Part shown: positions 5,597 to 38,825 of the stretch, piece after piece | How the letters are laid out: each line of letters starts with the position of its first letter | Position numbering within the stretch: position 1 is the first letter of the stretch | Source: a virus | Lineage: Duplodnaviria > Caudoviricetes | Strand: one strand, 5' to 3' | DNA: 64,000 nt | IMG/VR virus record: IMGVR_UViG_3300029305_011823 | The notes under the pieces: generated by a model | Told to the model about the DNA's origin: nothing | The model's input: the letters and a program-made list of their open reading frames with translations, nothing else | Databases searched by the model: none | Program-made: the position numbers and the translations under genes

Positions 5597-8500
5597 ATGA
5601 GTATAATTGCTAAATATAAATTTGATAAAAGTATATATGAAAATTTAATACCTGAGTTTAATGAAGGGTATACTGGATATACTATAAGTGATGAGATAGA
5701 TAGCGAGAATAGCAATCATGTTATAAGAACTATAAGTCATGATAATATGAAGCCTACGCTAATGCGATTCGGTCAAGTATGGCAAGAGGGTGCAGTATTA
5801 GGTGGTGCTCGATATGAATCTTTATTGGAAATTATTTCATTAGATACAAGTGCGTTAACTAACATGCACAGTATGTTTAGAAGCTGTTTTAATGTATACA
5901 GAATAAATACTGATGGATGGGATACTAGAAATGTAACTGAAATGAGACAGACATTTACACGTTGTTATTCATTAACTTCAATAGATGTAAGTAATATACA
6001 CGTAACTGGAGTTTTATATGCATATTTTTCGCAATGTATCAATTTAACTGAAATAATAGGACTTGACACATGGGATACTAGTAACGTAACTAATATGGAG
6101 CACATGTTCCATAATTGTTATAATTTAACTTCATTAGATTTAAGTAATTGGGATGTTAGTAATGTAGCTAATATGTTTTATATGTTTTCTTATTGTAATA
6201 ATTTAACTACAATAGGAGATGTAAGTAATTGGAATACTAGTAAAGTAACTGATATGAGTCAAATGTTTTTTAATTGTCAATCATTAACTTCATTAGATAT
6301 GAGTAATTGGAATACTGGTAAAGTAACCAATGTGCATCAAATGTTCCATAATTGTCATGCTATAAAATCAGTAGGAAATATTAGAAATTTTATTACTAAT
6401 AAGAGTACAACTATGAAAGGATTGTTTGAAAACTGTTATGCTTTAAAGGATATAGATACTAGCAATTGGGACGTTAGTAATGTAGATACAATGGAATATG
6501 CATTTGAAGAATGTCAATCATTAACTACATTAGACTTAAGTGATTGGAATATCAAAAGCACATGTGTTACAGTTGCAATGTTAACTAGTTGCGGTGTAAA
6601 AACTATATACATGTATAATTCTGATTATGCTTCGGTAAATAGAATTATAGAACAATTACCTCAAGTTGATAATGCTGAATTATATATAGGAGGTATAGAT
6701 AGTTTAGGCTCTGTAAATTTATCTGGTGCACGTGCTAAAAATTGGAGTGTAATCAATAAGTATAAAGTAGCTAAATATAAATTTGATAAAAGTATATATG
6801 AAAATTTAATACCTGAGTTTAATGAAGGGTATACTGGATATACTATAAGTGATGAGATAGATAGCGAGAATAGCAATCATGTTATAAGAACTATACTAGG
6901 AAATAGTTTACCTACATCGATGATATTTGGTGTAATGAATCCAAATCCAGTTGAAGATAAACATAAATGTTTATTGGACGTTGCATATGTAAATATCGAT
7001 AATATTGTTAATATGCATAGTATGTTTAGATACTGTATAAATTTATTATCAATAAATACAAGTAATTGGAATACTGCTCATGTAACTAATATGCATGATT
7101 TATTTCATAGTTGTCGTTCATTAACTTCATTGGATGTAAGTAATTTTGATACTAGTAATGTGAAAAATATGGGTTATATGTTTGTAAGTTGTTATAGATT
7201 AACTTCATTAGATGTAAGTAATTGGGATGTTAGTAAAGTAACTGATATGAATAATCTGTTCTATGATTGTAATAAATTAACTTCATTAGATGTAAGTAAT
7301 TGGGATACTAGTAGTGCAACTGTTATGGGTGGTATGTTCCGTGATTGTAATGCATTAACTTCATTGGATGTAAGTAATTTTGATACTAGTAAAGTAACTG
7401 ATATGAGTTATATGTTCTATGACTGTTATTCATTAACTTCATTAGATGTAAGTAAATGGGATACTAGTAATCTAACTGATATAGAATATATGTTCAATAA
7501 TTGTAATAGATTAACTTCATTAGATGTAAGTAATTGGGATACACGAAATCTACAAAAAGCATCATTAGCATTCTATAATTGTAAAAGGTTAGCAGTAATA
7601 GATGTTAGTAGATGGAAAATGAATGCAATACTATCATGTTATAGAATGTTTGATGCTTGTTCAGGCATATCTAAAGTAGATATATCCAACTGGGAATTAA
7701 CATACTCATCGGCTCATTTATATAGTTTGTGTTCAAATACTAATATAACACAATTTGAATTTCCTGATAGGACACAAAAGGTACGATATATACATCACAT
7801 ATTTAATAATTGTGTAAACTTAGAAGTTATCAATTTTAAAGACTGGGATATTTATGCATCTGAATCAACTACATCTGATATTGAAAAATACGATATATTT
7901 GGGATAAATATTGATAATAATAAAACTGTACCACCTATTAAAAAAATTATATCTAATAATTTAAGTACTATAAAAATATTAGCTAATAATCAAGCATTGC
8001 CAGATAAAACTGGTGAAGTTGAACCAGGTTATATCGTTACTACTCTAAGAGACCAAATAGATGAAGAAACTCTTGCAGCTTTAACTGCTAAAAACTGGGT
8101 AGTTAAGGACTTAGTTGCTCAATATAAATATGATGCTAATACATATGAAAACTTATTACCAGAATTCAATACTGAGTTTACTTCAGATAAATATGAAATT
8201 CATGATAGTATTAGTGAGGGCGTTATAACATATAACGATGTTACTGCATGGCATGAGGATGAAATTAATTTAAATTCGAATCTTATTACATGTCTAAGCA
8301 ATACAACTTATCATTTTATTAAAGGATTTGGAACTATACGTTGGTATGACTCTAATAAAAATTATATAGACGTTTCGTTATTCACTGATGGAGCGTACAT
8401 GACGTCTCCAATAAATGCTAGATACATGATGATTGTATATAATAAAGAGAATGGAAAAAATAGTTTTGAATTAGTATCTAAACTAGTAACTAGAAGTATA

Positions 8501-11500
8501 GAAAGTAAAAACGGTGATTTACCTACATTAATGAGATTCGGTCATAATGGAGATTCTACAGACGACCAAGCTACATACACTGGTCCAGCAACAGCATTAT
8601 TAAAAGTATTTGCTGCCAATACTAGTGAGTTAACAACTGGAGAAAGAATGTTTAGATATTGTAAAAGAGTTGAGGAAATACGCTGTTCAAATTGGAATAC
8701 TTCTAATATGACAGATATGGGTTCTATGTTCGCTACGGCTAGTGATTATTTAACAGAATTAGATGTAAGTAATTTAGATGTTAGTAATGTACATAATATA
8801 TCAACTATGTTCTGGGGTTGTTTTAAATTAACTTCATTAGATGTAAGTAACTGGGATACTAGTAATGTAATTAATATGTACGGTGTGTTTACTGCCGCAT
8901 ATAATTTAAATAATATAATTGGTATTGAAGACTGGGATACTAGTAGCGTAAAGGTTATGAATTATATGTTTTCTTATTGCTATATTCTACAATCATTGGA
9001 CTTATCTAAATGGAATGTTAATAATGTGACTAATATGGAAATGATGTTCTATGATTGTACTTCATTAGAATTGTTAAACTTAAGTAATTGGGATATGAGT
9101 CAAGTGATTTATATGAATAATATGATAAATAATTGCAATGAATTGAACTCAATAATAATGTATAATTCAAATGCTGTTTCAATCAATATTATTATAAATC
9201 AATTACCTACTAGAACAGAAGCTAGTAAAGGTGCTTTAGTTATAGCAGGTGTAGATGATAGAACTTTAGTAAATATAAATGTTGCTGAATCTAAGTTCTG
9301 GATTGTTAAATCTAGATTAGTAGCTAAATATAAATTTAATAAAAGTATATATGATAATTTAATACCTAATATGGGAACTGACTTCACTTCTTATACTGTT
9401 ATCGACAAAGTAAATCCATATAATGTAAATCATATAACAAGAATGCTTGTTAGTGATTTCGCTCCTCAGATAATGAAATTTGGTACTGATGGCGATGATT
9501 ATACTAAAGCTAAAGCTAAAGCTTTAATGGAAGTAATACATGTTCATATGGATAACTTAAGATGGTGCTATAACATGTTTAGAGGATGCCAATATGCTAC
9601 AGCTATAAATATGAAAAATGTTAATACTGATTTAATGACTAATATGTCATGTATGTTCTCTATGTGTTATAACATAACAACGCTAGATGTAAGTAGTTTT
9701 AATACAAGTCAAATAACTGATATGCAATATGTATTTGACGATTGTAATAAATTAACTGAAATAAAAGGGCTTGAAAATTGGGATGTTAGTAATGTAACTA
9801 ATTTCCGTGCTATGTTTGAAAATTGTCGAGTGTTAACTTCACTTTCTGACATATATGATTGGAATGTAGGTAAGGCTGAAAGTATGACTTTAATGTTCCA
9901 AAATTGTTATAAATTAACTTCGTTAGATTTAAATAATTGGGATACTGGTAACGTAACTACTATGGATAATATGTTCTGTGACTGTAATAAATTAACTTCA
10001 TTAGATGTAAGTAATTTTGATACTAGTAAAGTAACTAGAATGGACCATATGTTTGAAAAATGTCAATCACTAACTTCATTAGATGTAAGTAATTTTAATA
10101 CTATTAATGTAACTAAAATGAATAGTATGTTCGTTAACTGTAATAAATTAACTTCATTAGATGTAAGTGGTTTTAATACTAGTAAAGTAACTGATATGGA
10201 ATACATGTTCCAATATTGTGAATCATTAACTTCATTAGATGTAAGTAATTTTGATACTAGTAATGTAATTACTATGGCTTGTATGTTCATGTTTTGTTAC
10301 TCATTAACTTCATTAGATGTACGTAATTGGGATACTAGTAATGTAACAAATATGGGAAGAGTATTTGAAGCATGTGGTCAATTAGTAAATTTAGATATAA
10401 GTAGATGGAATACTGGTAATGTGACTAATATGGTAAGTTTATTTGCTAATTGTTATAAATTAACTTCATTAGATGTAAGTAATTTTAATACTAGTAAAGT
10501 AACTAATATGAGTAGTATGTTCGAAGATGCTGGAAGTACTAATAACAATAATGGATTATCTGTATTAAATTTATCTAATTTTAATTTTAGTAAAGTTACT
10601 AATGCAATGTGGATGTTAAATGGAACTGATGGACAATTAAAAATAAAAGAACTTAATTTAAATAATTTAGATTTAGCTACCATTTCGGATATACGTGACT
10701 TTATAGATAGTGACTATTCTAATAGTATACAAAATCCAAGAATAATATCTAATAACTTAAACACTATTAATTTATTGGCTGATATGTTACCAAATAGAAG
10801 TACAATAACTACATCAGGACAAATAGTAACTACAATAAGAGACCAAATAGATGAAGAAACTATGGCTGCTTTAACTGCTAAAAACTGGATTGTTAAGGGT
10901 TCAGTTGCTCAATATGTATACGATGCGAACACTTACGAAGACTTAATACCTGAGTTCAACCCTGAGTTTACTGAGGATATGTATGAGGTTCATGATAGTG
11001 TTAGTGAGATTGTTATTGATGATATACAATGGGAACCAGGTGGTATATCAGAAACTGCTGGTACTGATCATAATGGTATAAATGAAGAGTATCCTGATAG
11101 AGTTAGAAGTGGATATTTAACAGTTATACCAAATATAGAATATAAATTCAACGTTCCTTATGTACATGTATATTGGTATAATGAAAATAAACAGTTTATT
11201 TCTTATGATGGTATGTATGGTACAAATGGCGGTACTACTATGAAAGGGAATTCGTGTGTGGCTCCAATAAAGGCTAAATACTTAAGAATAGGTAGAGGTG
11301 CAGGTCCTTATACTATGTCTATTACAGCTAAGCTAGTAACTAGAAGTATAGAAAGTAAAAATGGCGATTTACCAACATTAATGAGATTTGGCACAGATTC
11401 TTGGGATATTGTCACAGATAAAAGTAAATCATTGTTAAAAATTGTGGATTTAAGTTCTAATAGTTTAATTATAATGACATATATGTTTAATAAATGTATA

Positions 11501-14500
11501 CGATTAACAAATGTTAATACTACTAACTGGGATGTTAGTAATGTAACTTATATGTATAGTATGTTCTTTGGTTGTACTAATTTAACTTCATTAGATGTAA
11601 GTAATTGGGATACTAGTAATGTAACTAATATGGGTGATTTGTTTACCGCTTGTCAATCATTAAAATCATTAGATGTAAGTGGATGGGATACTAGTAAAGT
11701 AACTAATATGTATCAAATGTTCGGTGATTGTATTAATTTAACTTCATTAGATGTAAGTAATTTTGATACTAGTGAAGTAACTAGTATGAATCATATGTTC
11801 AATAATTGTAAATCATTAACTTCATTAGATGTAAGTAATTTTGATACTAGTAAAATAACTAATATGGCTTATATGTTCTATAATTGCACTAGTTTAACTT
11901 CATTAGATTTAAGTAATTTTAATACTAGTAATGTAACTGTTATGAATCATATGTTCGCTGAGTGTAAAAAATTAACTTCATTAGATGTAAGTAATTTTAA
12001 TACTAGTAATGTAACTGATATGGGTTGTATGTTTAAAGAATGTAATGCATTAACAACAGTAGGAAATTTAAGTAATTGGAATACTGCTAGTGTTTCATAT
12101 ATGAACTATATGTTCTATGATTGTAGAAAATTAGCATCATTGGAAGGAATAGGTGGCTGGAATACTGCTAAAGTACTTGGAACGTTCGGTATGTTCTATC
12201 AATGTGCTGTAATAACTTCATTAGATGTGGCTGGATGGAATACTAGTAATATAAACACTATGGGAGCCATGTTCCAAGGTTGTAGTAGTTTATCATCATT
12301 AGACGTAAGTCATTGGAATGTTGCCAAAGTAGAGAATATGAATGGATTATTCCATGCTTGTAAAGCATTAACAACATTAGACGTAAGTAAATGGAATACT
12401 GCGAGATTAAATAAAATTAGTAGAGAACCTGGTGAGTTTAATGAACATATTTCTATATTCAGTGATTGTATTAATTTAACTTCATTGGATTTAAGTAATT
12501 GGAATATGAGTAATGTAACTAATACGAGATATATGTTCTATAATTGTAATAATTTAACTTCATTAGATGTAAGTAAATGGGATGTTAGTAAAGTAACTGA
12601 TATGGCTCAAATGTTCAGTGAATGTAAATTATTAACTTCATTAGATGTAAGTAAATGGGATGTTAGTAAAGTAACTGATATGAATAATATGTTCTATAAT
12701 TGTCAATCATTAACTTCATTAGATGTTCTTGAATGGGATACTAGTAGTTTAAGAGATATAACTAGTTTATTCTATGCATGTTCTAATTTAAAATCATTAG
12801 ATGTAAGTCATTGGAATGTTGATAATTGTGGTTCAGTTTTAGGGGATATAACTTATAGTATGCGTAATACATTTAATGATACTGGATTAAGAGTATTAAA
12901 TCTTAGTAAATGGTCTAAAATAGAATGGTTATATGATACATTAGAAGATGGAAGAATATGTAATAACTTTATAAATAGTACAGTGTTAAAAACTATAGAT
13001 TTCGGTAACTGTGTAATTCCATATTATCCAGTTAATTGGCTAAAAGCACCTAATTTAAGATATATTAAATGTGATAACGGAAATTCTGTTTCTAACTTAA
13101 TTGAACAAGTTCCTACTAGAACAGAGGCTGAGCCAGGATATATAATTACAACTGCTGAGATAAGCGATGACCATAAAGGTCTATTTAATGCTAAATATTG
13201 GAATATAGTTAAATTAGACGAAGTAGGAACAGATATTGCTATTTATAAATTCAATAAGAGTGTTTATAAATCATTAGTTCCTGTGTTTGATAATAACTTC
13301 GCAGATTGGTTTATGGACGACGTGGTAGAAGATGAAGTGAATGCTCCTAATATAGTTACTAGAACTATAAGAAGTATGGGAGGATTACCTACTAAAATGA
13401 TATTTGGTGTTAGTTCATCTTTAGGAGCATATGAAGATAGAAGTCTTTCATTACTAGAAGTACATAAACTTAATACGTCTAATATTACAACTATGGGTCA
13501 AATGTTTAAAAGATGTACTGGTGTAACTATGATAAATACTGCTGATTGGGATGTGTCTAATGTTACTAATATGAATGAATTGTTCTTTGAATGTGCTAAA
13601 ATAACTTCATTAGATGTAAGTAACTGGGATACACGTAAAGTAAATAATATGAGTAGTATATTTATACATTGCTTCAAATTACAAAATATAATAGGTTTAA
13701 ATAATTGGAATACTAGCAATGCACAAACTATGCAATGGATGTTCCAAGATTGTCAATCGTTAAAATCAATAGATGTAAGTAATTGGGATACTCGTAAAGT
13801 AAATAATATGGGTAGTATGTTTAGATATGCTATATCATTAGAATCATTAGATTTAAGTAGTTTTGATACTAGAGCTGTAACTAGTATGAATTGTATGTTT
13901 GCGGGTATTGATTATGGTAATTATAACCCAATGTCGTTAACAAGTATAACATTTGGTGAAAATTGGAATACTAGTAATGTACAAAATTTTGCTAATATGT
14001 TCTATGGTTGTCAATCATTAACTTCATTAGATGTAAGTAAATGGGATACTAGTAAAGCAACTAATATAGCTGGTATGTTCTGGGATTGTCGATCATTAAC
14101 TTCATTAGATGTAAGTAATTTTAATACTAGTAAAGTAACTAGAACGCAAGGTACGTTTAGAAATTGTAGAGCACTAGAATATATAGATGTAAGTAAATGG
14201 AATACTAGTAAAGTAACTGATATGCAGAATATGTTCTACGGTTGTCATTCATTAATTTCATTAGATGTAAGTAATTTTGATACTAGTATTATAACAGAAT
14301 TTGATGGTATGTTTGCTTATTGTAATAAATTAAGATATTTAATTTTAGGTAATTGGGACACTAGTAATGTAAAAGATATGGGGACAATGTTTGCCAATAA
14401 TTCAGGTGTTAGAGAATTAGATTTAAGTAGTTGGACTTGTAGTGCTGTTACAAAAGGAATGGGTTATATGTTCAGAAGTTGTATAAACTTAGAATATCTT

Positions 14501-16546
14501 GATATAAGTAATATGATTATTCCTGATACTGCTGTATTAACCGACCTTTTCTTAAATATAACAAAACTTGCAAACATAGGTATGATTTACTGTGATTTCA
14601 AATCAGTAGAAAAAATAGCTTCATTAGTACCAACAACTAACCCTACAACAATATGGGTAGGAAACCACATAGACATCAACGGACTACCACAGTACGACCA
14701 CATCACGTACAAAGTGTATGAAGTCGAAGATAAGTTGGAAGTTGAGCTGTCAAGCCCACTGTTAGAAGGCGACAGACTTGAAATTATTGATGGTGACTTA
14801 TATCATTATCATAAGATGGGAATAATTACTTACGATGGTAGTGACGATGAAGCACATTGGTCATATGGTTTGATTGAAAATGGATGGGAACAAGATGAAA
14901 ATTATCATGCATTTTATAATTATTATACATATAATAAGTATTCATTGTGGGAAAAACTAATTACAAAAAATAGTATTATTTATTGTGAAAATCTTTCAAC
15001 ATACGGATATAATTATTTAAATAGTACACAAGTATCTGTAGATGGTATACGTACAGAAGGTGTTAGTATAGGCTGGCATAATGTTAATGGTTATGATTAT
15101 CATTATATGACTATAAGAATACACAAAGATAAATTAACAACAATTGATTCAGCTGGATTCAAAACATGGCTTAAAGCTAACCCAATCACAATCGTATACG
15201 AAAGAGCAAACCCTTACTATGAATTAGTAAAACCTAACGTAGGTCTTTTAAATGCAGAACAAGGACTTTATTTAAATATTTTAGATTCTGTCGTTCCTGT
15301 TGTTAATCACCAAGACCTTTGTACTTTAAAACTTAACTATTTGCTTCCTAATGTAGAATATAAAGTTAAATTTAAAGCTAATATTCCAGGTTCAATTGCT
15401 ATTAATCTAGGAGGTACTTTAGTTCCTTTAGATGTAGTAGAAGGATGGAATGAAGTAATGGTTACTACACCAGAAACTTTAGTAGATGAATACTTAAAAG
15501 TAAATGGTTCTGAAGGTATAAAAATACAAAATGTTATGGTAATAGATAGTAATAAAGACTTTGATTATTTTAAAGGTATGAATAATACGTTTGATGAAAT
15601 TCCTGTTAAGAATATATGTACTAATAGAACTTTAACATATACTCATGGAGTAGATGAAGAAGGAGTAAGTCCACAAGGGGAAATGGCTGTAAATGTCAAT
15701 AAAGGTAAAGTAGTAACAGTGGTAGGAAAAGTAAGTAATAATCCAGATAATTTACCAATAAGTATTAATTTATATAATGATACAGGTAGAGCTACTGGTA
15801 AGAACTTATTTGATGGTAAATTTATTGAAGATAAAATAATAAACACTACAGATGGTGCAGCATTACAATTAAATCATGTACGAGGGGGCTATTGTACAGA
15901 TTTTATCGAAATTGATAATACTAAACATTTAACAATAACAGGATTCTGTTGTGATGGTATTGTTTATAGTTGTATATTCATGTATGATAAAGATAAAAAA
16001 TACATCGGTCGTACGTCTGGTAATGCTGTTGGTGAAGGTTTGAGACGTATTTTACCTACAGACGGTATTGATTCCGTACCTGGAGTTGATCATACTAATA
16101 TAACTAGAAATAAATTCCCAAATAATTGTAAATATATAAGATTCTCAAATTATTTTACATCTAGTATGAATGACCAATCAACACAATATTTATTAGACAA
16201 CTCTACACAATTACAAATAGAGAGTCATAATGGAAAAACTGAATATGAGCCTTTCAGAAATTATTGTAATGATGAACCTATATTTATAAACCCTGATGAA
16301 AATGGTAACTTTGCTATACAAATAAAAGCAGATCGTGATTATGCTAATAGAATAGGATTTAATGTTGGAGATGCTTTTGCTTGTGAAGCTAATGACCAAG
16401 TAACTATAACAGACCTTATGGTATTCGAAGGAGATATTATTGACTGTCATCCTACAACTTATGTAGATCCAGCAGATACTAGATATCTTGTTGAATATAA
16501 ATCATTCGGAAATCCATTTGGTTTTGGTAAAAATAAATTAATATAA
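5597..16546 (+). CDS. Giant multi-module LRR protein 2 (3649 aa), 6 capped LRR modules plus tail-protein-like C-terminal domains
   Basis: RBS AAAGGAG before ATG, 26-aa repeats, no signal peptide. The C-terminal region is homologous to that of protein 1 (SSPLLEGD, FKTWLKANPITIVYE, terminal P-x-x-FGK). Confidence 0.88.
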   Translation: MSIIAKYKFDKSIYENLIPEFNEGYTGYTISDEIDSENSNHVIRTISHDNMKPTLMRFGQVWQEGAVLGGARYESLLEIISLDTSALTNMHSMFRSCFNVYRINTDGWDTRNVTEMRQTFTRCYSLTSIDVSNIHVTGVLYAYFSQCINLTEIIGLDTWDTSNVTNMEHMFHNCYNLTSLDLSNWDVSNVANMFYMFSYCNNLTTIGDVSNWNTSKVTDMSQMFFNCQSLTSLDMSNWNTGKVTNVHQMFHNCHAIKSVGNIRNFITNKSTTMKGLFENCYALKDIDTSNWDVSNVDTMEYAFEECQSLTTLDLSDWNIKSTCVTVAMLTSCGVKTIYMYNSDYASVNRIIEQLPQVDNAELYIGGIDSLGSVNLSGARAKNWSVINKYKVAKYKFDKSIYENLIPEFNEGYTGYTISDEIDSENSNHVIRTILGNSLPTSMIFGVMNPNPVEDKHKCLLDVAYVNIDNIVNMHSMFRYCINLLSINTSNWNTAHVTNMHDLFHSCRSLTSLDVSNFDTSNVKNMGYMFVSCYRLTSLDVSNWDVSKVTDMNNLFYDCNKLTSLDVSNWDTSSATVMGGMFRDCNALTSLDVSNFDTSKVTDMSYMFYDCYSLTSLDVSKWDTSNLTDIEYMFNNCNRLTSLDVSNWDTRNLQKASLAFYNCKRLAVIDVSRWKMNAILSCYRMFDACSGISKVDISNWELTYSSAHLYSLCSNTNITQFEFPDRTQKVRYIHHIFNNCVNLEVINFKDWDIYASESTTSDIEKYDIFGINIDNNKTVPPIKKIISNNLSTIKILANNQALPDKTGEVEPGYIVTTLRDQIDEETLAALTAKNWVVKDLVAQYKYDANTYENLLPEFNTEFTSDKYEIHDSISEGVITYNDVTAWHEDEINLNSNLITCLSNTTYHFIKGFGTIRWYDSNKNYIDVSLFTDGAYMTSPINARYMMIVYNKENGKNSFELVSKLVTRSIESKNGDLPTLMRFGHNGDSTDDQATYTGPATALLKVFAANTSELTTGERMFRYCKRVEEIRCSNWNTSNMTDMGSMFATASDYLTELDVSNLDVSNVHNISTMFWGCFKLTSLDVSNWDTSNVINMYGVFTAAYNLNNIIGIEDWDTSSVKVMNYMFSYCYILQSLDLSKWNVNNVTNMEMMFYDCTSLELLNLSNWDMSQVIYMNNMINNCNELNSIIMYNSNAVSINIIINQLPTRTEASKGALVIAGVDDRTLVNINVAESKFWIVKSRLVAKYKFNKSIYDNLIPNMGTDFTSYTVIDKVNPYNVNHITRMLVSDFAPQIMKFGTDGDDYTKAKAKALMEVIHVHMDNLRWCYNMFRGCQYATAINMKNVNTDLMTNMSCMFSMCYNITTLDVSSFNTSQITDMQYVFDDCNKLTEIKGLENWDVSNVTNFRAMFENCRVLTSLSDIYDWNVGKAESMTLMFQNCYKLTSLDLNNWDTGNVTTMDNMFCDCNKLTSLDVSNFDTSKVTRMDHMFEKCQSLTSLDVSNFNTINVTKMNSMFVNCNKLTSLDVSGFNTSKVTDMEYMFQYCESLTSLDVSNFDTSNVITMACMFMFCYSLTSLDVRNWDTSNVTNMGRVFEACGQLVNLDISRWNTGNVTNMVSLFANCYKLTSLDVSNFNTSKVTNMSSMFEDAGSTNNNNGLSVLNLSNFNFSKVTNAMWMLNGTDGQLKIKELNLNNLDLATISDIRDFIDSDYSNSIQNPRIISNNLNTINLLADMLPNRSTITTSGQIVTTIRDQIDEETMAALTAKNWIVKGSVAQYVYDANTYEDLIPEFNPEFTEDMYEVHDSVSEIVIDDIQWEPGGISETAGTDHNGINEEYPDRVRSGYLTVIPNIEYKFNVPYVHVYWYNENKQFISYDGMYGTNGGTTMKGNSCVAPIKAKYLRIGRGAGPYTMSITAKLVTRSIESKNGDLPTLMRFGTDSWDIVTDKSKSLLKIVDLSSNSLIIMTYMFNKCIRLTNVNTTNWDVSNVTYMYSMFFGCTNLTSLDVSNWDTSNVTNMGDLFTACQSLKSLDVSGWDTSKVTNMYQMFGDCINLTSLDVSNFDTSEVTSMNHMFNNCKSLTSLDVSNFDTSKITNMAYMFYNCTSLTSLDLSNFNTSNVTVMNHMFAECKKLTSLDVSNFNTSNVTDMGCMFKECNALTTVGNLSNWNTASVSYMNYMFYDCRKLASLEGIGGWNTAKVLGTFGMFYQCAVITSLDVAGWNTSNINTMGAMFQGCSSLSSLDVSHWNVAKVENMNGLFHACKALTTLDVSKWNTARLNKISREPGEFNEHISIFSDCINLTSLDLSNWNMSNVTNTRYMFYNCNNLTSLDVSKWDVSKVTDMAQMFSECKLLTSLDVSKWDVSKVTDMNNMFYNCQSLTSLDVLEWDTSSLRDITSLFYACSNLKSLDVSHWNVDNCGSVLGDITYSMRNTFNDTGLRVLNLSKWSKIEWLYDTLEDGRICNNFINSTVLKTIDFGNCVIPYYPVNWLKAPNLRYIKCDNGNSVSNLIEQVPTRTEAEPGYIITTAEISDDHKGLFNAKYWNIVKLDEVGTDIAIYKFNKSVYKSLVPVFDNNFADWFMDDVVEDEVNAPNIVTRTIRSMGGLPTKMIFGVSSSLGAYEDRSLSLLEVHKLNTSNITTMGQMFKRCTGVTMINTADWDVSNVTNMNELFFECAKITSLDVSNWDTRKVNNMSSIFIHCFKLQNIIGLNNWNTSNAQTMQWMFQDCQSLKSIDVSNWDTRKVNNMGSMFRYAISLESLDLSSFDTRAVTSMNCMFAGIDYGNYNPMSLTSITFGENWNTSNVQNFANMFYGCQSLTSLDVSKWDTSKATNIAGMFWDCRSLTSLDVSNFNTSKVTRTQGTFRNCRALEYIDVSKWNTSKVTDMQNMFYGCHSLISLDVSNFDTSIITEFDGMFAYCNKLRYLILGNWDTSNVKDMGTMFANNSGVRELDLSSWTCSAVTKGMGYMFRSCINLEYLDISNMIIPDTAVLTDLFLNITKLANIGMIYCDFKSVEKIASLVPTTNPTTIWVGNHIDINGLPQYDHITYKVYEVEDKLEVELSSPLLEGDRLEIIDGDLYHYHKMGIITYDGSDDEAHWSYGLIENGWEQDENYHAFYNYYTYNKYSLWEKLITKNSIIYCENLSTYGYNYLNSTQVSVDGIRTEGVSIGWHNVNGYDYHYMTIRIHKDKLTTIDSAGFKTWLKANPITIVYERANPYYELVKPNVGLLNAEQGLYLNILDSVVPVVNHQDLCTLKLNYLLPNVEYKVKFKANIPGSIAINLGGTLVPLDVVEGWNEVMVTTPETLVDEYLKVNGSEGIKIQNVMVIDSNKDFDYFKGMNNTFDEIPVKNICTNRTLTYTHGVDEEGVSPQGEMAVNVNKGKVVTVVGKVSNNPDNLPISINLYNDTGRATGKNLFDGKFIEDKIINTTDGAALQLNHVRGGYCTDFIEIDNTKHLTITGFCCDGIVYSCIFMYDKDKKYIGRTSGNAVGEGLRRILPTDGIDSVPGVDHTNITRNKFPNNCKYIRFSNYFTSSMNDQSTQYLLDNSTQLQIESHNGKTEYEPFRNYCNDEPIFINPDENGNFAIQIKADRDYANRIGFNVGDAFACEANDQVTITDLMVFEGDIIDCHPTTYVDPADTRYLVEYKSFGNPFGFGKNKLI
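5609..6895 (+). repeat. Exact 126-bp direct repeat of the module N-cap (5609-5734 = 6770-6895)
   Basis: Base-by-base comparison. Confidence 0.9.
7277..7455 (+). repeat. 179-bp LRR cassette identical to 23258-23436 in a different gene
   Basis: Base-by-base comparison, including shared minority synonymous codons (ttg, gac). Confidence 0.9.
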
Positions 16547-16552
16547 AACACT

Positions 16553-16593
16553 GAAGAGAAGTCAATTACAGGCTTCTCTTCTCTTTTTATTTT
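16553..16593 (+). terminator. Intrinsic terminator
   Basis: GAAGAGAAGTC/GGCTTCTCTTC stem plus T-rich tail after LRR gene 2. Confidence 0.8.
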
Positions 16594-16598
16594 CTAAA

Positions 16599-16610
16599 AA
16601 CAATCTTATA
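16599..16610 (+). promoter_or_regulatory. AACA-N6-TA late-type promoter
   Basis: AACA ATCTTA TA just after a terminator. Confidence 0.75.
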
Positions 16611-16651
16611 ATGATAAAATAATCCAAATTTAAAAAGGAGTTGATTGTAAC

Positions 16652-17887
16652 ATGTCAATGGTAGATAAGGAGAAACTTGCTAGATTGGCTCATGCATTAG
16701 ATGATAGAGCTGATGAAAAAGTTGCTAATGAGGCACAAAGGGCTGCTCAAGCAGAAGCAGATATACAAGCACATAGTGATGCTACTAGAGAAATGCTTGG
16801 TGGAAAATCACTTAAATATTTAACACAAGCAGAGTATGATGTTTTATCAGAAGAAGAAAAGAAGAATGAAAATGTTATTTATTATATAACTGACCTTGAA
16901 GATAGAACTCATGATCATTATAACAAAGAAGTTTTAGATTTAATAGATGATGAGTTTATAAAAAATATAGGTAAAGGTCAATTATTAGAAATAGTTATAC
17001 CAGCAGAAGCTGGTTGGTATAGAGTAGCTTCTATGGAAGGTACTGGAGCTGGTCTTATAGACGTTCAATGTGGTCATGGTGAATATATCGTTATGATAGG
17101 ACATGGAGAAAACCATGAACCTAATATGATGCAATTAGGAATGTGTTCGTTAGGAGGACGTAGAAATAGCAAAATAAGAATGGTTCACCATAAAGAAACA
17201 GAAGAAGCTCATTTAGAACTTCATTATGAAGAAGGAGCTGAAGACATTAATGTAAAACTACAAATATTAGGTGAATCTGATTGGAGATTATCAGAACCAG
17301 TTAAAACTGAAGCTGTCGATGAAGCTTTATATCTTATAAGAGAAATGGTATTAGTTCCTGGAAAAATTGTTGGGGACTTCAGTGGTGTAATAGAACAAGC
17401 TAACAAACTAGCAGCACCTGTTCAAGTTATAATCGGTGATGTTCGTAGAGAATTTGATGGAACTGCAGATATATCTTTCTCATTAAATGAAATAGGAGCT
17501 GCTCCAAGGGAAAGTGAAGTTTTAACTACAGAAAACAAAGTGGTTATAGATGCAATAAATGAATTAGATGCTGATTTAGGAGTTGTTGAAGAAGCATTAG
17601 GTGGATATAAAATATGGGTTGGAAATACAGAACAATTAAATGCTATAGTAGAAAGAGACCCAATGACTTTATATTTTGAAATAAGTGATAGTGTAGCTTA
17701 TACTGAAATAAATCCTGAAGTAGAAGCAGCTGGTATAGCTACTACTGAAATATATGATGAAATGATACCTGCTTACGACCCAGTAGCAGAAGTAGAACAA
17801 GATGTTATATTAACATCACCTATGGGATTCAAATTTAAATTAAGAGTAGATGATTTCGGTAATCTATTCACAGAACCTGTAGAATAA
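16652..17887 (+). CDS. Tail-fibre-like adaptor/hub protein (411 aa)
   Basis: Several motifs typical of phage fibre proteins: LTQAEYDVL..YYITD, ANKLAAP..FDGTADISFSLNEIGA, LTTENKVVIDAINEL, KIWVGNTEQLNAI..DPMTLYF and C-terminal LTSPMGFKFKLRVDDFGNL. RBS AAGGAG. Confidence 0.7.
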   Translation: MSMVDKEKLARLAHALDDRADEKVANEAQRAAQAEADIQAHSDATREMLGGKSLKYLTQAEYDVLSEEEKKNENVIYYITDLEDRTHDHYNKEVLDLIDDEFIKNIGKGQLLEIVIPAEAGWYRVASMEGTGAGLIDVQCGHGEYIVMIGHGENHEPNMMQLGMCSLGGRRNSKIRMVHHKETEEAHLELHYEEGAEDINVKLQILGESDWRLSEPVKTEAVDEALYLIREMVLVPGKIVGDFSGVIEQANKLAAPVQVIIGDVRREFDGTADISFSLNEIGAAPRESEVLTTENKVVIDAINELDADLGVVEEALGGYKIWVGNTEQLNAIVERDPMTLYFEISDSVAYTEINPEVEAAGIATTEIYDEMIPAYDPVAEVEQDVILTSPMGFKFKLRVDDFGNLFTEPVE

Positions 17888-17896
17888 TAACAACAA

Positions 17897-17908
17897 AACA
17901 ATGAAATA
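17897..17908 (+). promoter_or_regulatory. AACA-N6-TA late-type promoter
   Basis: AACA ATGAAA TA upstream of LRR gene 3. Confidence 0.7.
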
Positions 17909-17980
17909 ATAAATTTAACATATGGAGTAAATAAATTCATTTACTCCATATTAATTATATAAAGGAGTGTGAATATTAAA

Positions 17981-20900
17981 ATGGCTGATATAGCAAAATA
18001 TAAATTTAATAGTGATACTGATGTTTTACCTATATTCGGTGATATTAATTTCGAATACACTTATACAGATGAAATAGGTAGCGATGGTACTATTACAAGA
18101 ACAATAGTTGCTAACAGTTCTCCTAATAGTATAAAATTCACTGAAAAAACGGGATTAATTTCAGTTGAATTTATAGATATGACTGAAATAACAAGTTGTG
18201 CTGAAATGTTTAAAGATTGTATCAACCTAACATATGTTGATTTTAATAGTGTTAATACTAGCAAAGTAACTGACATGAGAAGTATGTTTGAAGGTTGTAG
18301 TGGATTTTTATCAATAGATTTATCAGGATTAAATACTGGGAATGTATTAGATATGACAAATATGTTTAGAGGATGTAGTAATGTGTTCTCTATAGATACA
18401 AGCATGATAAATGTGAGTAAAGCAACAAGTTTAAATAGTATGTTCCAAGGATGTGCTAATATTACAGGTATAAGTTTACAAGGTTGGAATTTATCTAATG
18501 TTGTAAATATGGGTTGGATGTTTGACGGTTGTACTAACTTATTATCTGTAATTTTAAAAGGTGTTAATATACCTAATTCAGCTACAATAACAGATATGTT
18601 TAAAGATTGTATAATTTTAAATAACGTAAACATGGATAATTGTAGTGTAGAAGATATTAATAAAATGATGAGAGTTCTACCTGAAAGAACTGATGGAAGA
18701 GATTATAAATTAAAAACAAATTTAGCTGATGTGAGTGGAATAAATACTGAAGACTTAGAAGCTAAAGGTTGGAGATTAGCAACTTATGAAATAGTTCTTA
18801 GATATAAATTTGATAAAAGTATATATGCTAATTTAATACCAGAATTTAATAGTAATTTTATAGATTATGTGGTAATAGATGAAGTAGTTGAAGGGAATAT
18901 AGTAACTAGAGCTATAGGTCATGAGAATTTAAAACCTACAAAAATTTATTTTGGTAGCCCTTATACAGAATTAAATTCACAATTCCCAAAATCTAATTCA
19001 TTGTTATCAATTGAACATTTAGATCCTAGTAATCTTTATGATGTAAGAGGTATGTTTAGATATTGTAGAAATTTAACTTCAATAGATGTAACTAATTGGG
19101 TTACTACAAAAATTACAAGTTTATGGGATATGTTCTCTTTATGTACAAATTTACAAGAAATAATAGGGCTTGAAACATGGGATACTAGTAATGTTGATAG
19201 TTTAAACGCAACATTCCATGGTTGTAATAATCTATCATACATAGGAGATATATCTGGTTGGCAAACTGGAAAAGTACATGACATGGCTTACTTATTTAGT
19301 GCATGTTATAATTTAACTTCAATAGATATAAGTAACTGGGACACTAGTATTGTAACTACAATGTATTATATGTTTAACTCGTGTCGTTCTTTAGTATCAT
19401 TAAACGTACAAGGAATAGATGTTGGTAACGTAAATAATATGGCTAATATGTTTAGTCAATGTAATAAATTAACTACAATAGATGTAAGTGGTTGGGATAC
19501 TAAAAATGTAACTAATATGAGTTTTATGTTCTCAAAATCTATTGCTTTAATACAAATTATCGGAATAGAAAATTTCATTACTAGTAAAGTAACTAATATG
19601 CAAGATGTATTCGGAGGTTGTCTTGCTTTAAGATCATTAAATTTAAGTAATTGGGATGTTAGTAAAGTAACTCACTTTAATGGGACATTCAATGATTGTA
19701 ATAGTCTTACAGAATTAAATGTTAGTAGCTGGGTAACAACTAGTGCACAATATATGCAAGCAATGTTCTTTGGTTGTCATAATTTACTTTCATTAGATTT
19801 AAGTAACTTTGTTACTACTAATGTATTAGATATGACTCAAATGTTTGATAGATGTTGGGTTATTACAGAAATAAAAGGACTTGAAAATTGGAACGTTGGT
19901 AAAGTAACTAGTATGAGATATTTATTCTCAGCTTGTCATAAAGTAACCGAATTGAATGTTAGTAATTGGAATGTTGAAAAAGTAACAAATATGGAATATA
20001 TGTTCTACTGCTGTGAACGATTGACGTTATTAGATTTAAATAATTGGAATCCTACTAGGGTCCAAAATATGTCTAATATGTTTAAATTTTCTTCTGGATT
20101 ACAATCAATAAGTTCATCTAACTGGAATACTGATAGTTTAACAACTATAAATAGCATTTGTTATGGTTGCAATAATTTAACTACATTAGATGTAAGTAAT
20201 TGGAATACTAGTAAAGTGAATGATATGAATAGTGCTTTCCACCAATGTTATAATTTAACTACATTAGATGTAAGTAATTGGGATACTAGTAATGTAACTA
20301 ATATGAATAGTCTTTTCTCAGAATGTAATAAAGTAAATGGATTAGATGTAAGTAATTGGGACGTTAGTAAAGTTGAGCATTTATCAGGTATATTTAAAGA
20401 TTGCTATAAATTATCTTCATTAGATGTAAGTAGATGGAATACTAGCAGTGCTATAAGAACACACATGCTATTCTATGGATGTAACTCTTTACAATCATTA
20501 GATGTAAGTAATTTTAATACTAGTAAGGCTAGTTTAATGAGAGGAATGTTTGGAAGTCTTCAATCAATAACAATGTTAGATTTATCTAGTATAGATACTT
20601 CATCAGTTACTAATGATACATTTGCTGATTATATGTATAGTATGTATAATCTTAAAACACTTATTTTAGGAGAAAAATCTTTAGCTAAGCATATAGATAC
20701 TTGGGATGAAACGTTTGATTATGAACATCAAATTACACCATTCCCAGTGTTAGAAAGATTAGTATGTCCTGATGAAGAAACTATAGAAAGAATATCTAAA
20801 TACTTACCAGATCGTTCTACAGCTGTAAACCCTGGTGTTATAGTAACAAATGCTACAATATCAGATGAAGCAATGAATACTATCTCTGGTAAAAACTGGT

Positions 20901-23900
20901 CTTTAAGAAAAATGGTTGCTCAATATAAATTTGACGCTGTTACTTATGAGAACTTAATACCTGAGTTCAATGCTGAGTTTACTGAATCTGATTATGTGAT
21001 TACTGACAGTGTAAGTGAATCTGTTATAGATAATATACAATGGATTGATGGTTATGCATTAACTGCAGATACTGGTGCACTTACTAATGATGATGAATCG
21101 CATGTATCTGATTTTATCGTAATTCAACCAAATGTTGCTTATAGAGTAAATCAACCAACATATGTTTATTGGTATGATGAAAATAAAGCATTCATAAATA
21201 ATGATTATGTGAGTGAAGAAGATTATAATGCAGGAAATGATAATATGGTATCTCCTGTAAATGCTAGATATGTAAGATTTACTCAATACAGTTATAGAGA
21301 AGGATTAGAAGTTGAAAGTAAAGTAGTAACTAGAACTATTGAAAGTGTAGCTGGTAAATTACCTACATTTATGAGATTTGGTGGTGTTACTGATCTTGTA
21401 GACGTATTCGATAGACCGTATAGTTTACTAGAAATATGCAATTTAAATACTGAAAATATAAATTCTATGCACTCTATGTTCCATTATTGTAAAAGATTGA
21501 CTAAAGTAAATAGTATAAATTGGAATACCAATAAAGTAACTAATATGTTTGATATGTTTAGTGAATGTCATTCATTATCTTCATTAGATGCAAGTAAATG
21601 GAATACTGGTAATGTAACTACTATGAGTCACATGTTCCATAAATGTCATTCAATATCTTCGATAGGAGACGTAAGTAATTGGAATACTGGTAAAGTAACT
21701 ACTATGTATTCTATGTTCAATAGTTGTTATTTATTAACTTCATTAGATGTAAGTAAATGGAATACTAGTAATGTAACTGATATGAGTAATATGTTTAGAT
21801 CTATGGTATCAATTACAACTTTAGATATAAGTAACTGGGACACTAGTAAAGTAACTAATATGGCTTATATGTTTGCTAATTGTAAATCATTAACTTCATT
21901 AGATGTAAGCAATTTTGATACTAGTAATGTAACTAATATGAATTTTATGTTCTATAATTGTAATAAATTAACTTCATTAGATGTGAGTAGATGGGTTACT
22001 AGTAATGTAAATGATATGCAAGGTGTGTTCCATAGTTGTAAATTATTAACTTCATTAGATGTAAGTAACTGGGATACTGGTAATGTAACTAGTATGTTTG
22101 AATTGTTCCAAAATTGTAATAATTTAACTTCATTAGATGTAAGTAATTGGGATACTAGTAATGTAACTGATATGAAGTATATGTTCAGATGTTGTTATAA
22201 TTTAACTTCATTAGATGTAAATAATTGGGATACTAGTAAAGTAACTGATATGGGTTATATGTTTGACGGATGTCATTCATTAACTTCATTAGATGTAAGT
22301 AATTGGGATACTGGTAATGTAGAATATATGGGTTATATGTTCAATGCTACAGATGGATATTCAATGAGTTTAACTTCATTAGATCTAAGTAAATGGGATA
22401 CTAGTAAAGTAACTAGTATGCCTAATATGTTTGAACAATGTGACAGTATAGAAAGACTTAATCTAAGTAATTGGGATACTAGTAAAGTATATATTATGCA
22501 ATATTTATTTAGTTATTGTAGATCATTAACTTCATTAGATATAAGTAATTGGAGTTTAGCTAATGTAAATTCAATGCCAGGTATGTTTTTAAATACTGAT
22601 AATTTAAGACTTATAAAATGTGATAATCCAGCTACAGTGAATATTATAGCTCAATACCTTATGGATAGAACTTCACAAGAAAAAGCTGGTATGATAGTAA
22701 TAGACGACACTGAAGGATTAGATACTACTGCACTTACTGCTAAAAACTGGACTGTTGTTCCTACATCAGCTCAACATATAGTTGCTGAGTATAAATTCAA
22801 TAAAGACTTAGCAGATTTAATGCCTGAATTAAATCCTGAGTTTGATGCTTATTTCGTTTATGATGAATATAACGATACTGAAGCAATTGAGACAACTGGA
22901 TATGAAACTATGATGTTATTTAATGCTGATAGTGAACCTGATGAGGACGGAGTAATAACTGCAGAAACTGAAGTAGAAGTTGTGAATACTGTGGAAGCTG
23001 GTAATATAGTTACTAGAAAAATAGTAAGTTATGGTGATGATTTACCTACATTGATGAGATTTGGTGGTTTAGGTGATAGTGCTGTTGAATATAATAGAGC
23101 AAAATCTCTAATAAGAATAGAACAACTAGACACTACAGGATTAACTACTATGCATCATATGTTTAGAATGTGTGAAAATGTAGTATATATTAATAATAAC
23201 AATTGGAATATTACTAATGTAACTACTATGCAAGGTGCTTTTTTAGGTTGCTATAATTTAACTTCATTAGATGTAAGTAATTGGGATACTAGTAGTGCAA
23301 CTGTTATGGGTGGTATGTTCCGTGATTGTAATGCATTAACTTCATTGGATGTAAGTAATTTTGATACTAGTAAAGTAACTGATATGAGTTATATGTTCTA
23401 TGACTGTTATTCATTAACTTCATTAGATGTAAGTAATTTTAATACTAGTAATGTAACTACTATGAATCGTATGTTCTATAAATGTAGTAATTTAACTTCA
23501 TTAGATTTAAGTAATTTTGATACTAGTAAAATAACTAATATGGCTTATATGTTCAATGCTTGTTATAATTTAACTTCATTAGATGTAAGTAAATGGCAAA
23601 CAGGAAGTCTAATATATATGAATAGTATGTTCAATGCTTGTCATAATTTAACTTCATTAGACTTAAGCAACTGGAATGTTAGTAATGTAACTGATATGCA
23701 AGGTGCATTTGGTGGTTGTAAATTATTAACTACATTAGGTGATATCAGTAATTGGAATGTTGGTAAAGTAACTAATGTATATGATATGTTTGGATATTGT
23801 AAGAGCCTAGTATCATTAGACTTAAGTAATTGGAATACTGACAGTTTAACTAATATGAGTCATTTTATATATGGTGCAGACAAACTAGAAGAAATATATT

Positions 23901-32734: not shown

Positions 32735-32738
32735 TAAA

Positions 32739-32750
32739 AACAAATACATA
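32739..32750 (+). promoter_or_regulatory. AACA-N6-TA late-type promoter overlapping a hairpin
   Basis: AACA AATACA TA upstream of the collagen-like gene. Confidence 0.6.
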
Positions 32751-32786
32751 AGAGATTACAACGTCTCTTATGTATTTGATTTTTTC
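32741..32786 (+). terminator. Hairpin/probable terminator after LRR gene 3
   Basis: 15-bp stem CAAATACATAAGAGA/TCTCTTATGTATTTG followed by ATTTTTT. Confidence 0.7.
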
Positions 32787-32842
32787 TATATAAGAACGTT
32801 GTAAATTAAAATTCTAACAATGAAGGAGAGTGTAAATAAATC

Positions 32843-35800: not shown

Positions 35801-37027
35801 TACATTAATGTTCCTGCTGCAGAAGCTGGTAAATTAATGGTATTCGGAGGATACGGACCTAATAATGTTAACGTTAAGAGAAGTTTACCAAATACTAAGA
35901 TAGTTGCTAAAGGAGTTAATATAAAAGGTATCTGTGGAGGTAACTACTTTGAAGGTATAGTTGGTAGATCTGAAATAATCGTTAGAGATTGTAATATGAA
36001 ACAAATTATAGGTGCAGGATGGTGCGGAGCAGCAGTAAATGGAAAACCTGCTAGATTAAACGTCGTTTATGATGTATTTGTAGATTGTGAAAATATGACT
36101 GGTTGTTCATTATTATTTGGTGGACCACAAGGAAACGGTGTAGCTGAAACAGTAGATATGAAACTTAAAAATTGTGAAGTCGGATGGGTTACTATAGGTG
36201 GTTCTAACGGATGTACTAGAAACGGAGTAGTTGAAATAAATGGTGGTACATATACTTGTGTACAAACTACAAATAGAGGTATTGTAAATAATGCTAAAGT
36301 AATATTAGAGGACGGATTAGTTAAAGCTTTATATGCTGGTGGAGAAACTGAAGATAACACAGTAACTGGAATAATAGAAGATTGTGAATTAATACTTAAC
36401 GGCGGTATTGTAAATAAATTTAGCTTAGGAACTAGCAACGGTGTAGAAGGAGCTATAAGACCTCATGGTATAATAGCTGATACTAATGTTGTAGTTGGAG
36501 ACGTTAGTATGCTTAAACATATAGATGATCCTGTTAAAGAAGACTATGAAGCTCAAATTAAAGCTCTTAAGGAGGAACTAGAAATGGCTAAGAAAAAAAT
36601 ACTTGATATGGAATTTGGTGTAGAATATGAATGGATACATGAAGTAAAACAAGAAGAAGTTGATACTATAATATTCAATCGTGAAAATGCACCTAGTTTA
36701 TTCAACGAAATGGACACTATAGAAGAAGCATTTGCTAAAGGTGAAATAGACGAAGAAAAATATAATGAATGGTGGATGCAATTTGAAAATGGTGATGTAT
36801 TCAGAGTTTACGCTTTAAGACTTGCTAGTGATAATAAAGCATTCAATAGATATAATGTATTAATTCCATATGAAGGAAGCACTGTACAACAACCAGGTGA
36901 AGGATTACAAGACTGGGAAGTTATACCAGGATTAGACTGGACTTGGAACTTTGATGGAGAACAAATAGTATTAAATTATATGGCATTATCAAAAATGGTA
37001 TTTGCTATAATGAAAGTTAAAGAATAG
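32843..37027 (+). CDS. Collagen-like (Gly-X-Y) fibre protein with N-terminal PLDAR domain and C-terminal beta-helix-like region (1394 aa)
   Basis: Long GPQ/GEQ/GPM triplet runs interrupted by [12 protein letters not shown]..GTVEEFIxSLxG linkers, two GTSxxIVG..GHL domains and [12 protein letters not shown]. Gly-Gly-rich beta-repeat region near the C-terminus. Confidence 0.85.
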
Positions 37028-37065
37028 GTTCTACTATAATTTTAATAAAGAGAGGTGAATTGTAA

Positions 37066-37788: not shown

Positions 37789-37799
37789 TCGTCTAGGAG

Positions 37800-37811
37800 A
37801 ACAATACATTA
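37800..37811 (+). promoter_or_regulatory. AACA-N6-TA late-type promoter
   Basis: AACA ATACAT TA. Confidence 0.7.
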
Positions 37812-37879
37812 AAGGTGACTGGGCTTTATAATAAAGCCCAGTAAATAAAAAATATTATATAAAAAGGAGTGTTTTATAA

Positions 37880-38791: not shown

Positions 38792-38825
38792 TATAAATAA
38801 TAAATAGGTAAAGGAGTGAAAAAAG

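Follow-up and report, generated by a model that had tools for sequence, protein, structure and literature searches.

We analyzed a 64,000-nucleotide (nt) stretch of DNA from a virus of the Caudoviricetes (Duplodnaviria), IMG/VR record IMGVR_UViG_3300029305_011823, to which we refer throughout as the window. At positions 1–37 kb it holds a fibre locus in which three giant genes, g1, g2 and g3, encode long arrays of leucine-rich repeat (LRR) units, and our subject is a set of short tracts that are identical, or nearly so, between arrays that otherwise differ. One of these tracts is polymorphic among metagenome assemblies of the same phage, and its simplest history is a very recent copying of two repeat units from g2 into g3. 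The locus reads g1, g2, a 411-amino-acid (aa) open reading frame (ORF), g3 and a 1394-aa collagen-like fibre gene. Its main elements are these:

3–5504, + strand: g1, giant DUF285/BspA-type LRR protein (Pfam PF03382, E 9e-126, 413 bits)
5597–16546, + strand: g2, 3649 aa, six modules of header, LRR array and cap (PF03382 in 22 stretches, 1194 bits)
16652–17887, + strand: 411-aa ORF with a phage tail tip domain (PF24243), the single-copy anchor for sister assemblies
17969–32734, + strand: g3, 4921 aa, about 118 LRR unit matches to a unit hidden Markov model (HMM) (PF03382 in 40 stretches, 2177 bits)

The window does not reach the 5' end of g1, whose open frame extends upstream for at least another 4.4 kb in contig L024. 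The C-terminal, non-LRR domain of g2 (aa 2963–3649) matches the tail fiber family phrog_6782 (E 1e-13). This PHROG match and the adjoining genes, a tail-tip-domain ORF and a collagen-like fibre gene, suggest that g1, g2 and g3 encode receptor-binding virion fibres. The window has a G+C content of 29% and encodes split RNA polymerase beta and beta-prime-like subunits, virion proteins, thymidylate synthase and dihydrofolate reductase (DHFR). The split polymerase subunits and virion proteins identify it as part of a predicted jumbo phage, which the gene set places as a distant relative of phiR1-37 and the PBS1/AR9-type phages. A 23-kb megablast search of GenBank phages returned no match, and no close relative is present there. 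Public runs holding the phage are animal feces and gut metagenomes, three 2018 feces runs among them.

The unit HMM recognizes 218 units of 26 aa (78 nt) across g1, g2 and g3, spread over window 669–32320 and arranged as repeated modules of header, array and cap. The PF03382 scores given above compare with a cut-off of 25 bits, and on this basis the three genes are classed as giant paralogous arrays of DUF285/BspA-type LRRs. An AlphaFold2 model of one module is a solenoid without helices, with predicted local distance difference test (pLDDT) values of 85–95 in the LRR part, for which the best Foldseek match in the PDB is a BspA-type LRR protein (4fs7). By tblastn, DUF285 proteins were found in Butyrivibrio, Listeria, Prevotella and cyanophage records. 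Each unit opens with an almost invariant framework of about 36 nt and continues with hypervariable codons (positions 15–26), the hypervariable residues being 15, 16, 18, 19, 22, 23, 25 and 26. Asn, Asp, Tyr, Ser and His abound at these positions, Lys and Glu are also common there, and third codon positions vary as much as the first two (site match about 0.48). The first strand, LTSLDVS, is invariant across units. Variable lymphocyte receptors (VLRs) and internalins use a concave-face variable surface; given the invariant first strand, any variable surface here must differ from theirs.

The sequence-only reading of the window had proposed that exact LRR cassettes were copied between these genes, listing four identical pairs and one near-identical pair. 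A maximal-exact-match listing bore this out: all four pairs are exact and maximal, no pair being extendable by even one base at either end, and the fifth carries 4 mismatches in 83 nt (12677–12759 against 28847–28929). The listing also added a 126-nt pair located in module headers, outside the LRR units, so that copying is not limited to those units. A further pair, 93 nt with one mismatch, emerged after 4.4 kb of upstream sequence from a sister contig had been added, and it links g3 to g1 sequence 2.6 kb upstream of the window. The tracts are as follows:

7277–7455, + strand: donor copy of the 179-nt tract, in g2, invariant in every assembly
23258–23436, + strand: acceptor copy of the 179-nt tract, in g3 (converted allele C), with a polymorphic core at 23295–23412, from comparison of assemblies
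2235–2393, + strand: a-block copy of the 159-nt exact tract in g1, the acceptor by outgroup comparison
2469–2627, + strand: b-block copy of the 159-nt tract, three units downstream and closer to the relative's b-block, the likely donor
5609–5734, + strand: g2 module 1 header, 126 nt exactly matching 6770–6895
6770–6895, + strand: g2 module 2 header, 126 nt exactly matching 5609–5734, with sharp divergence directly after
26768–26846, + strand: first copy of a 79-nt exact tract in g3
27314–27392, + strand: second copy of the 79-nt tract, seven units downstream in the same array
21762–21834, + strand: first copy of a 73-nt exact tract in g3, at an array end
32325–32397, + strand: second copy of the 73-nt tract, at the end of the last g3 array
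23414–23506, + strand: g3 patch matching upstream g1 (93 nt, one mismatch), abutting the polymorphic tract and fixed in all assemblies
12676–12759, + strand: older tract in g2, now decayed, differing from 28846–28929 at 4 of 84 nt
28846–28929, + strand: g3 counterpart of the decayed g2 tract, differing at 4 of 84 nt

All tracts lie in frame and in repeat register. They measure 0.9–2.3 units and end in invariant framework, much as had been described before (one to two units, ending inside conserved framework); the 179-nt tract comprises exactly two units plus 23 nt of the next framework. Identity falls from 100% over 73–179 nt to 25–70% within a few bases of the tract ends and is 25–80% in the flanks, which remain alignable in register.

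Could such matches arise by chance among similar repeats? The 4005 pairwise comparisons among 90 canonical units average 72% nucleotide identity (standard deviation 7.5%). Only three of these pairs are identical, the next best reaches 93.6%, and no more than about 3% of units have a near-identical partner. A model using per-site match frequencies from all 4005 pairs assigns a probability of about 1e-27.6 to the 179-nt identity and about 1e-13 to one whole identical unit, and none of 24,000 simulated array comparisons produced a run longer than 50 nt. This agrees with the background of real exact matches, which ends at 56–62 nt and is followed by 73, 79, 126, 159 and 179 nt. Chance is thus excluded as the origin of the tracts. 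One candidate fell to the same yardstick: a possible third g3 patch (23508–23554 matching 11832–11878, 47 nt) lies within the chance background and was rejected.

A sister phage provided a natural control. Represented by IMG/VR records G001 and G002, the latter 97% complete, it shares 70% aa identity with the window in the 411-aa ORF and also carries the three giant genes, with about 240 unit matches. Exact LRR matches in it reach 55 nt at most, unit pairs do not go beyond 91% identity, and no fresh tract is found. Two sister-phage loci from different metagenomes (IMG/VR 3300031555 and 3300029305) are 100% identical along 39.8 kb of sequence that takes in the three LRR genes, which shows that such arrays can be fully stable between samples.

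An exact-protein look-up with the 411-aa ORF, g2 and a downstream ORF yielded 22 loci in JGI and ENA metagenome assemblies, and these revealed the 179-nt tract as a polymorphism. Over 17–21 kb, seven assemblies (L008 to L014), each from a different sample, run colinear with the window and differ from it by 35 substitutions, all within 23295–23412 and with no change in length; their other differences are five scattered single-base variants and a junction at one contig end of L008. At this place in g3 the seven assemblies have two different LRR units (allele U), where the window has those of g2 (allele C). A 238-kb JGI contig (L007/L024) two substitutions from the window shares allele C, as does an ENA k141 contig (L027) that ends within the tract. 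The two alleles differ at 20 of 52 residues, mainly at hypervariable positions (13–26), and exchanging one for the other may alter a putative ligand-binding surface, the outcome that the sequence-only reading had proposed for such copying. On either side of the replaced core, donor and acceptor agree completely over a short block, 37 nt long to the left and 24 nt to the right. Against this cluster of substitutions, the background amounts to about 10 single-base variants over about 41 kb across all assemblies.

The direction of transfer follows from the distribution of the alleles. No donor for allele U was found in the window, the 4.4 kb upstream or the sister phage, where the best match is 82–85%, and U occurs on three backgrounds differing by single-base variants; U is therefore native and C derived. 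The g2 copy at 7277–7455 is invariant in all assemblies, so the transfer ran from g2 to g3. Very recent, non-reciprocal, in-register copying of two units from g2 into g3 is the simplest history. At its head, the L008 contig has 75 nt of g3 left flank leading into the tract, after which its sequence follows g2; the same contig has U at g3, which suggests that its sample contains both alleles. Outside 23295–23412 the arrays are identical in at least 10 assemblies, and the process is thus sporadic and not a high-frequency switch.

Other collections gave little on the alleles. An exact search of IMG/VR for the 179-nt tract found no match, nor did a search of a metagenome contig collection with a pattern covering both g3 alleles, and an exact-protein look-up of g3 from two alternative starts returned no record. 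In Logan k=31 contigs, the unique inter-array stretches sampled by the listed pieces occur without differences in the three 2018 feces runs. These contigs cannot join flank to tract, because 31-mers fit inside the 36-nt framework and the contigs therefore break at every framework repeat; they show no allele frequencies, and their many apparent joints are repeat noise.

The g1 tandem tract offered a second case in which direction could be read. Its array is colinear with that of G002, unit for unit, with six units in each, forming a- and b-blocks of three units. The blocks are 91% alike in the window (159 nt exact) and 74% alike in G002, and the g1 tract is 82–85% identical to the downstream b-block of G002 and 72% to the upstream a-block. 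Because the length is unchanged relative to the outgroup and the tract resembles the b-block, the downstream block must have overwritten the upstream one, by conversion and not by duplication; comparison with related phage genomes, proposed alongside the original claim of gene conversion, thus decided the matter for this tract. The 126-, 93-, 84-, 79- and 73-nt tracts were assigned no polarity, and they show the same sharp drops at their ends in alignable flanks. Over the region corresponding to window 2147–2705, one JGI contig (L028) is without exactly 234 nt, a single three-unit block between the g1 tandem tracts, reflecting either a real deletion by unequal crossover or assembly collapse of the 159-nt repeat.

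Recombination at the locus also extends to larger scales. A 1526-aa g2 allele (P0002; ENA ERZ27248351, a 19,973-nt contig), adjoining a 411-aa ORF identical to that of the window, was profiled from residue 601 onward: it is 100% sister-type from there to about residue 1200 and 100% window-type over the last approximately 400 aa. The crossover falls within the conserved C-terminal domain, identifying P0002, by its residue profile, as an inter-lineage recombinant g2 allele. Two further loci (L022 and L023), compared over window 32555–40331, are sister-like (98.6%) up to about 33.8 kb and window-identical beyond, with the switch inside the collagen gene. As judged from these mosaics, general recombination is clearly active here on larger scales. 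L022 and L023 also record a second strain, sister-like through the 3' end of g3 and the start of the collagen gene, in samples that hold the window type as well. In g2, about 7.4 kb in four modules (window 6324–13739) stand against 1.2 kb in the sister (G002 region 16427–17593), and the g3 interior (18.9–30.0 kb) is not colinear with the sister phage, although both ends of each gene are conserved. Among the assemblies, g2 product lengths of 1979, 2975 and 3151 aa were considered as variation in module number; on alignment the DNA proved colinear, the differences arising from gene calling, contig ends and a 1-nt deletion. This deletion, at window 7046 in L012 and L013, splits g2 into ORFs of 485 and 3151 aa ahead of the module 2 LRR array and may be a real frameshift variant or a sequencing error.

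Downstream of the fibre genes, a 906-aa ORF (38826–41546) with weak bactofilin and tail-protein matches has exact internal repeats of its own (39345–39406 and 40815–40876, 62 nt; 39742–39781 and 41065–41104, 40 nt). Within this gene, L018 has substitutions at 39563 and 39584, a distance of 21 nt. The ends of five contigs from different samples, one of them the 238-kb contig, cluster within 20 nt in the same gene, at 41424–41442. The window continues past this point, which may be a genome terminus, a terminal-repeat boundary or a strain-variable point.

We sought dedicated machinery and silent donor cassettes. The 97%-complete sister genome has no match to reverse transcriptase (PF00078) or to serine or tyrosine recombinases (PF00239, PF00589), and neither a RecA-family protein nor RecT was detected in it. 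Nor did Pfam and PHROG scans of the window's larger ORFs match any reverse transcriptase or recombinase family, in line with the sequence-only reading, which had seen neither a reverse transcriptase nor a site-specific recombinase in the window. Every one of the 91 framework matches in the 64 kb is on the + strand and falls, in frame, inside the three complete ORFs, and therefore no silent donor cassettes exist among them; no silent, out-of-frame, inverted or intergenic cassette was found in the window. The sister phage has one dCMP_cyt_deam_1 domain (G002:C1:163435-163791), in a 404-aa open frame far from the locus. This is probably a nucleotide-metabolism enzyme, as thymidylate synthase and DHFR genes in the window would lead one to expect.

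Since the arrays are highly repetitive, one must ask whether short-read assembly produced the identical tracts by collapsing repeats or threading the graph wrongly. Several contigs have an end inside a tract (L026 at 2267; L027 at 2487 and 23378), a collapsed repeat could explain the missing 234-nt block of L028, and the head of L008, in which the tract connects the left flank of g3 with the right flank of g2, is what a graph walk would produce. However, allele C appears in three assemblies made by different pipelines (the window, the 238-kb JGI contig and the ENA k141 contig). Moreover, g2 and the unconverted g3 share no more than the 37 and 24 nt flanking the core, so that, as we reason, no de Bruijn path with k above about 37 could have invented the junctions. 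L027, a 141-mer contig, combines a g3-specific left flank with C-specific bases, a combination that needs real reads. Contigs of the C haplotype break inside the exact repeats, whereas those of the U haplotype pass through both loci; this pattern fits real tracts, because true repeats longer than k produce contig breaks. It is unlikely that allele C is an assembly artefact, and extremely unlikely that the identical tracts as a whole arose in this way. Plain recent duplication followed by divergence of the flanks, without conversion, is very improbable as the source of the unpolarised tracts (the 126-nt header and the 79-, 73- and 84-nt pairs). Module gain and loss does occur, as the roughly 7.4 kb of extra modules in g2 relative to the sister attests, and the module 2 header is identical to that of module 1. 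Nevertheless, a young duplication would match over its whole length, and here identity drops abruptly at the tract ends within alignable flanks. For the two tracts in which duplication could be put to the test it is excluded, as length is unchanged relative to allele U and to the outgroup, respectively. Mutagenesis by a diversity-generating retroelement (DGR), as a source of the variable positions and near-identical pairs, is effectively excluded. The richness in Asn, Asp, Tyr, Ser and His superficially recalls mutagenesis of AAY codons, yet reverse transcriptase is missing from both the sister genome and the scans of the window's larger ORFs, third codon positions are equally variable, Lys and Glu are common at variable positions, and the alleles differ by an exact block copy of another locus and not by adenine-specific changes.

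What kind of process does the copying belong to? Very probably, the tracts are products of ectopic homologous recombination or copy-choice between misaligned paralogous arrays, with concerted evolution and mosaicism as incidental results. Misaligned array copies, within one genome or between sister genomes replicating in one cell, would recombine by general homology, and one to three units would occasionally be copied from one array into another, through strand invasion with synthesis-dependent annealing or through two template switches. The copying would be in register and non-reciprocal, leaving the donor unchanged, and end points would fall in framework blocks because homology is perfect there. 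Host RecA or an unrecognised phage recombinase would be candidate enzymes, none being recognisable in the sister phage, and new combinations of units would be an incidental by-product. The more ambitious alternative is that the locus is an evolved cassette-diversification system in which the giant genes act as mutual donor libraries and selection keeps framework DNA identical. Whole units are indeed replaced in register with end points in framework, the swap falls mainly at hypervariable positions 13–26 with 20 aa changes, in two diverged phages the fixation of framework codons goes well past what codon bias would give, transfer is one-way with an unchanged donor, both alleles probably occur in one sample (the contig-end junction of L008), and neighbouring g3 patches have different donors. 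Yet there are no silent cassettes, every unit lying in an intact ORF; only 3 of 4005 unit pairs are identical; at least 10 assemblies are identical through the arrays but for one tract; the sister phage is without a fresh tract among its approximately 240 units; no reverse transcriptase or recombinase was found in the sister genome; and the sister's deaminase ORF is distant, the thymidylate synthase and DHFR of the window fitting ordinary nucleotide metabolism. We therefore consider an evolved system unlikely, and the same doubt attaches to a functional analogue of VLR, pilE/pilS or vlsE, or an alternative to DGRs without reverse transcriptase. The recent copying itself is real; the findings do not make it a programmed, VLR-like system, and we infer an incidental process and not a dedicated diversification machine.

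Several observations nonetheless weigh against so simple an account. The allele comparison rests on assembled contigs, and the samples, to judge from their serial identifiers and from the feces runs of 2018, probably represent one sampling campaign and one phage population and so are probably not independent. In g3 (23258–23506), two neighbouring patches that came from different donors adjoin directly, which hints at a local hot spot. Identity blocks of 37 and 24 nt are near the lower limit for RecA-type exchange, and flanks this short leave room for single-strand annealing, copy-choice or a specialised factor. Finally, synonymous sites in the framework are far more uniform than codon bias predicts: TCA encodes Ser3 in 77 of 80 units, and AGT encodes Ser7 in 76 of 81, against a background usage of about 30% each, and Ser12 (AGT), Thr (ACT), Val (GTA) and Phe21 (TTC) are likewise position-specific, although elsewhere in the window ACA and GTT are commoner than the framework's ACT and GTA. 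Codon homozygosity in the framework is 0.8–0.9 where 0.3–0.55 is expected. The framework codons are identical in the sister phage (L003/L004, G002), 20–25% diverged, and yet in single-copy orthologues of the two phages only 65–82% of identical residues retain their codon. Such fixation is the outcome expected from continual short-tract homogenisation, but it could also reflect selection on the DNA for recombination homology; the latter would speak for an evolved diversity system.

Mechanistically, the copying falls in with interlocus gene conversion and concerted evolution, known in clustered LRR resistance genes of plants and in surface-protein families of bacteria and protists. As there, we find patches of identity in diverged but alignable flanks, non-reciprocal transfer, end points in framework and no dedicated enzyme, with the framework homogenised and the variable positions diverse. 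What differs is that the family lies inside three giant genes of a phage virion locus, and that one event was caught as a polymorphism in a population almost without substitutions. DUF285/BspA-type LRRs (PF03382) occur in surface proteins of gut Firmicutes, Bacteroidota and Mollicutes and in some phages and giant viruses. Our genes share this repeat family and, for the modelled module, the 4fs7 fold match, but their products of 3600–4900 aa chain six or more header-array-cap modules within a jumbo-phage fibre locus.

The closest phage match is the mosaic adhesins gp37/gp38 of T-even phages, whose hypervariable specificity segments are exchanged by recombination within conserved motifs or close to them (Trojet et al. 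2011, PMC3157838; for the mosaic recombination of T-even adhesins also Tetart et al. 1996 and 1998, as cited in PMC3157838). In both, conserved motifs alternate with hypervariable segments and exchange occurs in the motifs by general homologous recombination, and the inter-lineage recombinants P0002 and L022 are the identical phenomenon. The T-even donor library, however, resides in other phage genomes, whereas here about 220 donor units reside in one genome and transfer runs between paralogous genes, the fold being an LRR solenoid and not the polyglycine sandwich of gp38.

The VLR system of lampreys and hagfish shares with ours the in-register copying of LRR units by short end homology and the resulting change of variable residues on a solenoid. 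It was to lamprey VLR assembly that the sequence-only reading had likened the locus, and this part of its inference found no support as a description of a system. There is neither an incomplete receptor gene nor a silent cassette bank, and no sign of a dedicated deaminase was seen; the events, far from being somatic and obligatory, are rare and heritable; and the hypervariable residues occupy positions 15–26, not the first strand LTSLDVS. The absence of silent cassettes, the small share of units (about 3%) with a near-identical partner, the stability of the arrays in at least 10 assemblies and the sister without a fresh tract all argue against assembly as a system. Its other part, recent homology-directed copying of LRR units, stood, and the C/U polymorphism and the g1 outgroup comparison show it to be non-reciprocal. 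Neisseria pilE/pilS, Borrelia vlsE and Treponema tprK likewise vary by segmental, one-way gene conversion that leaves the donor unchanged; here, in contrast, donors are segments of expressed genes, there is no single expression site, and no high-frequency mosaicism is visible in the assemblies. Phage DGRs (Bordetella BPP-1 Mtd) also vary a receptor-binding-type phage protein at defined positions, whereas our locus has no reverse transcriptase, no pair of template and variable repeats and no adenine-specific pattern, showing block copy instead. It differs also from the invertible fibre segments of Mu (Gin) and P1 (Cin), as the sister genome has no serine or tyrosine recombinase match and all units lie on one strand.

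Fibre and adhesin proteins determine which hosts a phage can infect, and their known routes of diversification are inter-phage exchange, mutagenesis by retroelements and invertible segments. A fourth and simpler route appears here, caught in nature: the copying of whole units between paralogous giant fibre-locus genes of a single genome. In one step it changed 20 residues, set against about 10 single-base variants in about 41 kb. The chances are against the stronger proposition that the approximately 220 LRR units form an internal library, with framework DNA kept identical and unit conversion continually yielding fibre variants in the population; if true, it would constitute a self-contained generator of host-range diversity, requiring no reverse transcriptase and doing inside one genome what T-even phages do between phages. 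Huge repeat arrays in a jumbo phage, it emerges, can be stable enough to assemble and yet recombine at the scales of units, blocks and whole-gene alleles. Fibre diversification is a central question for phage ecology and phage therapy, and the natural allele pair C and U provides a handle for testing whether DUF285 LRR arrays act as receptor-binding elements.

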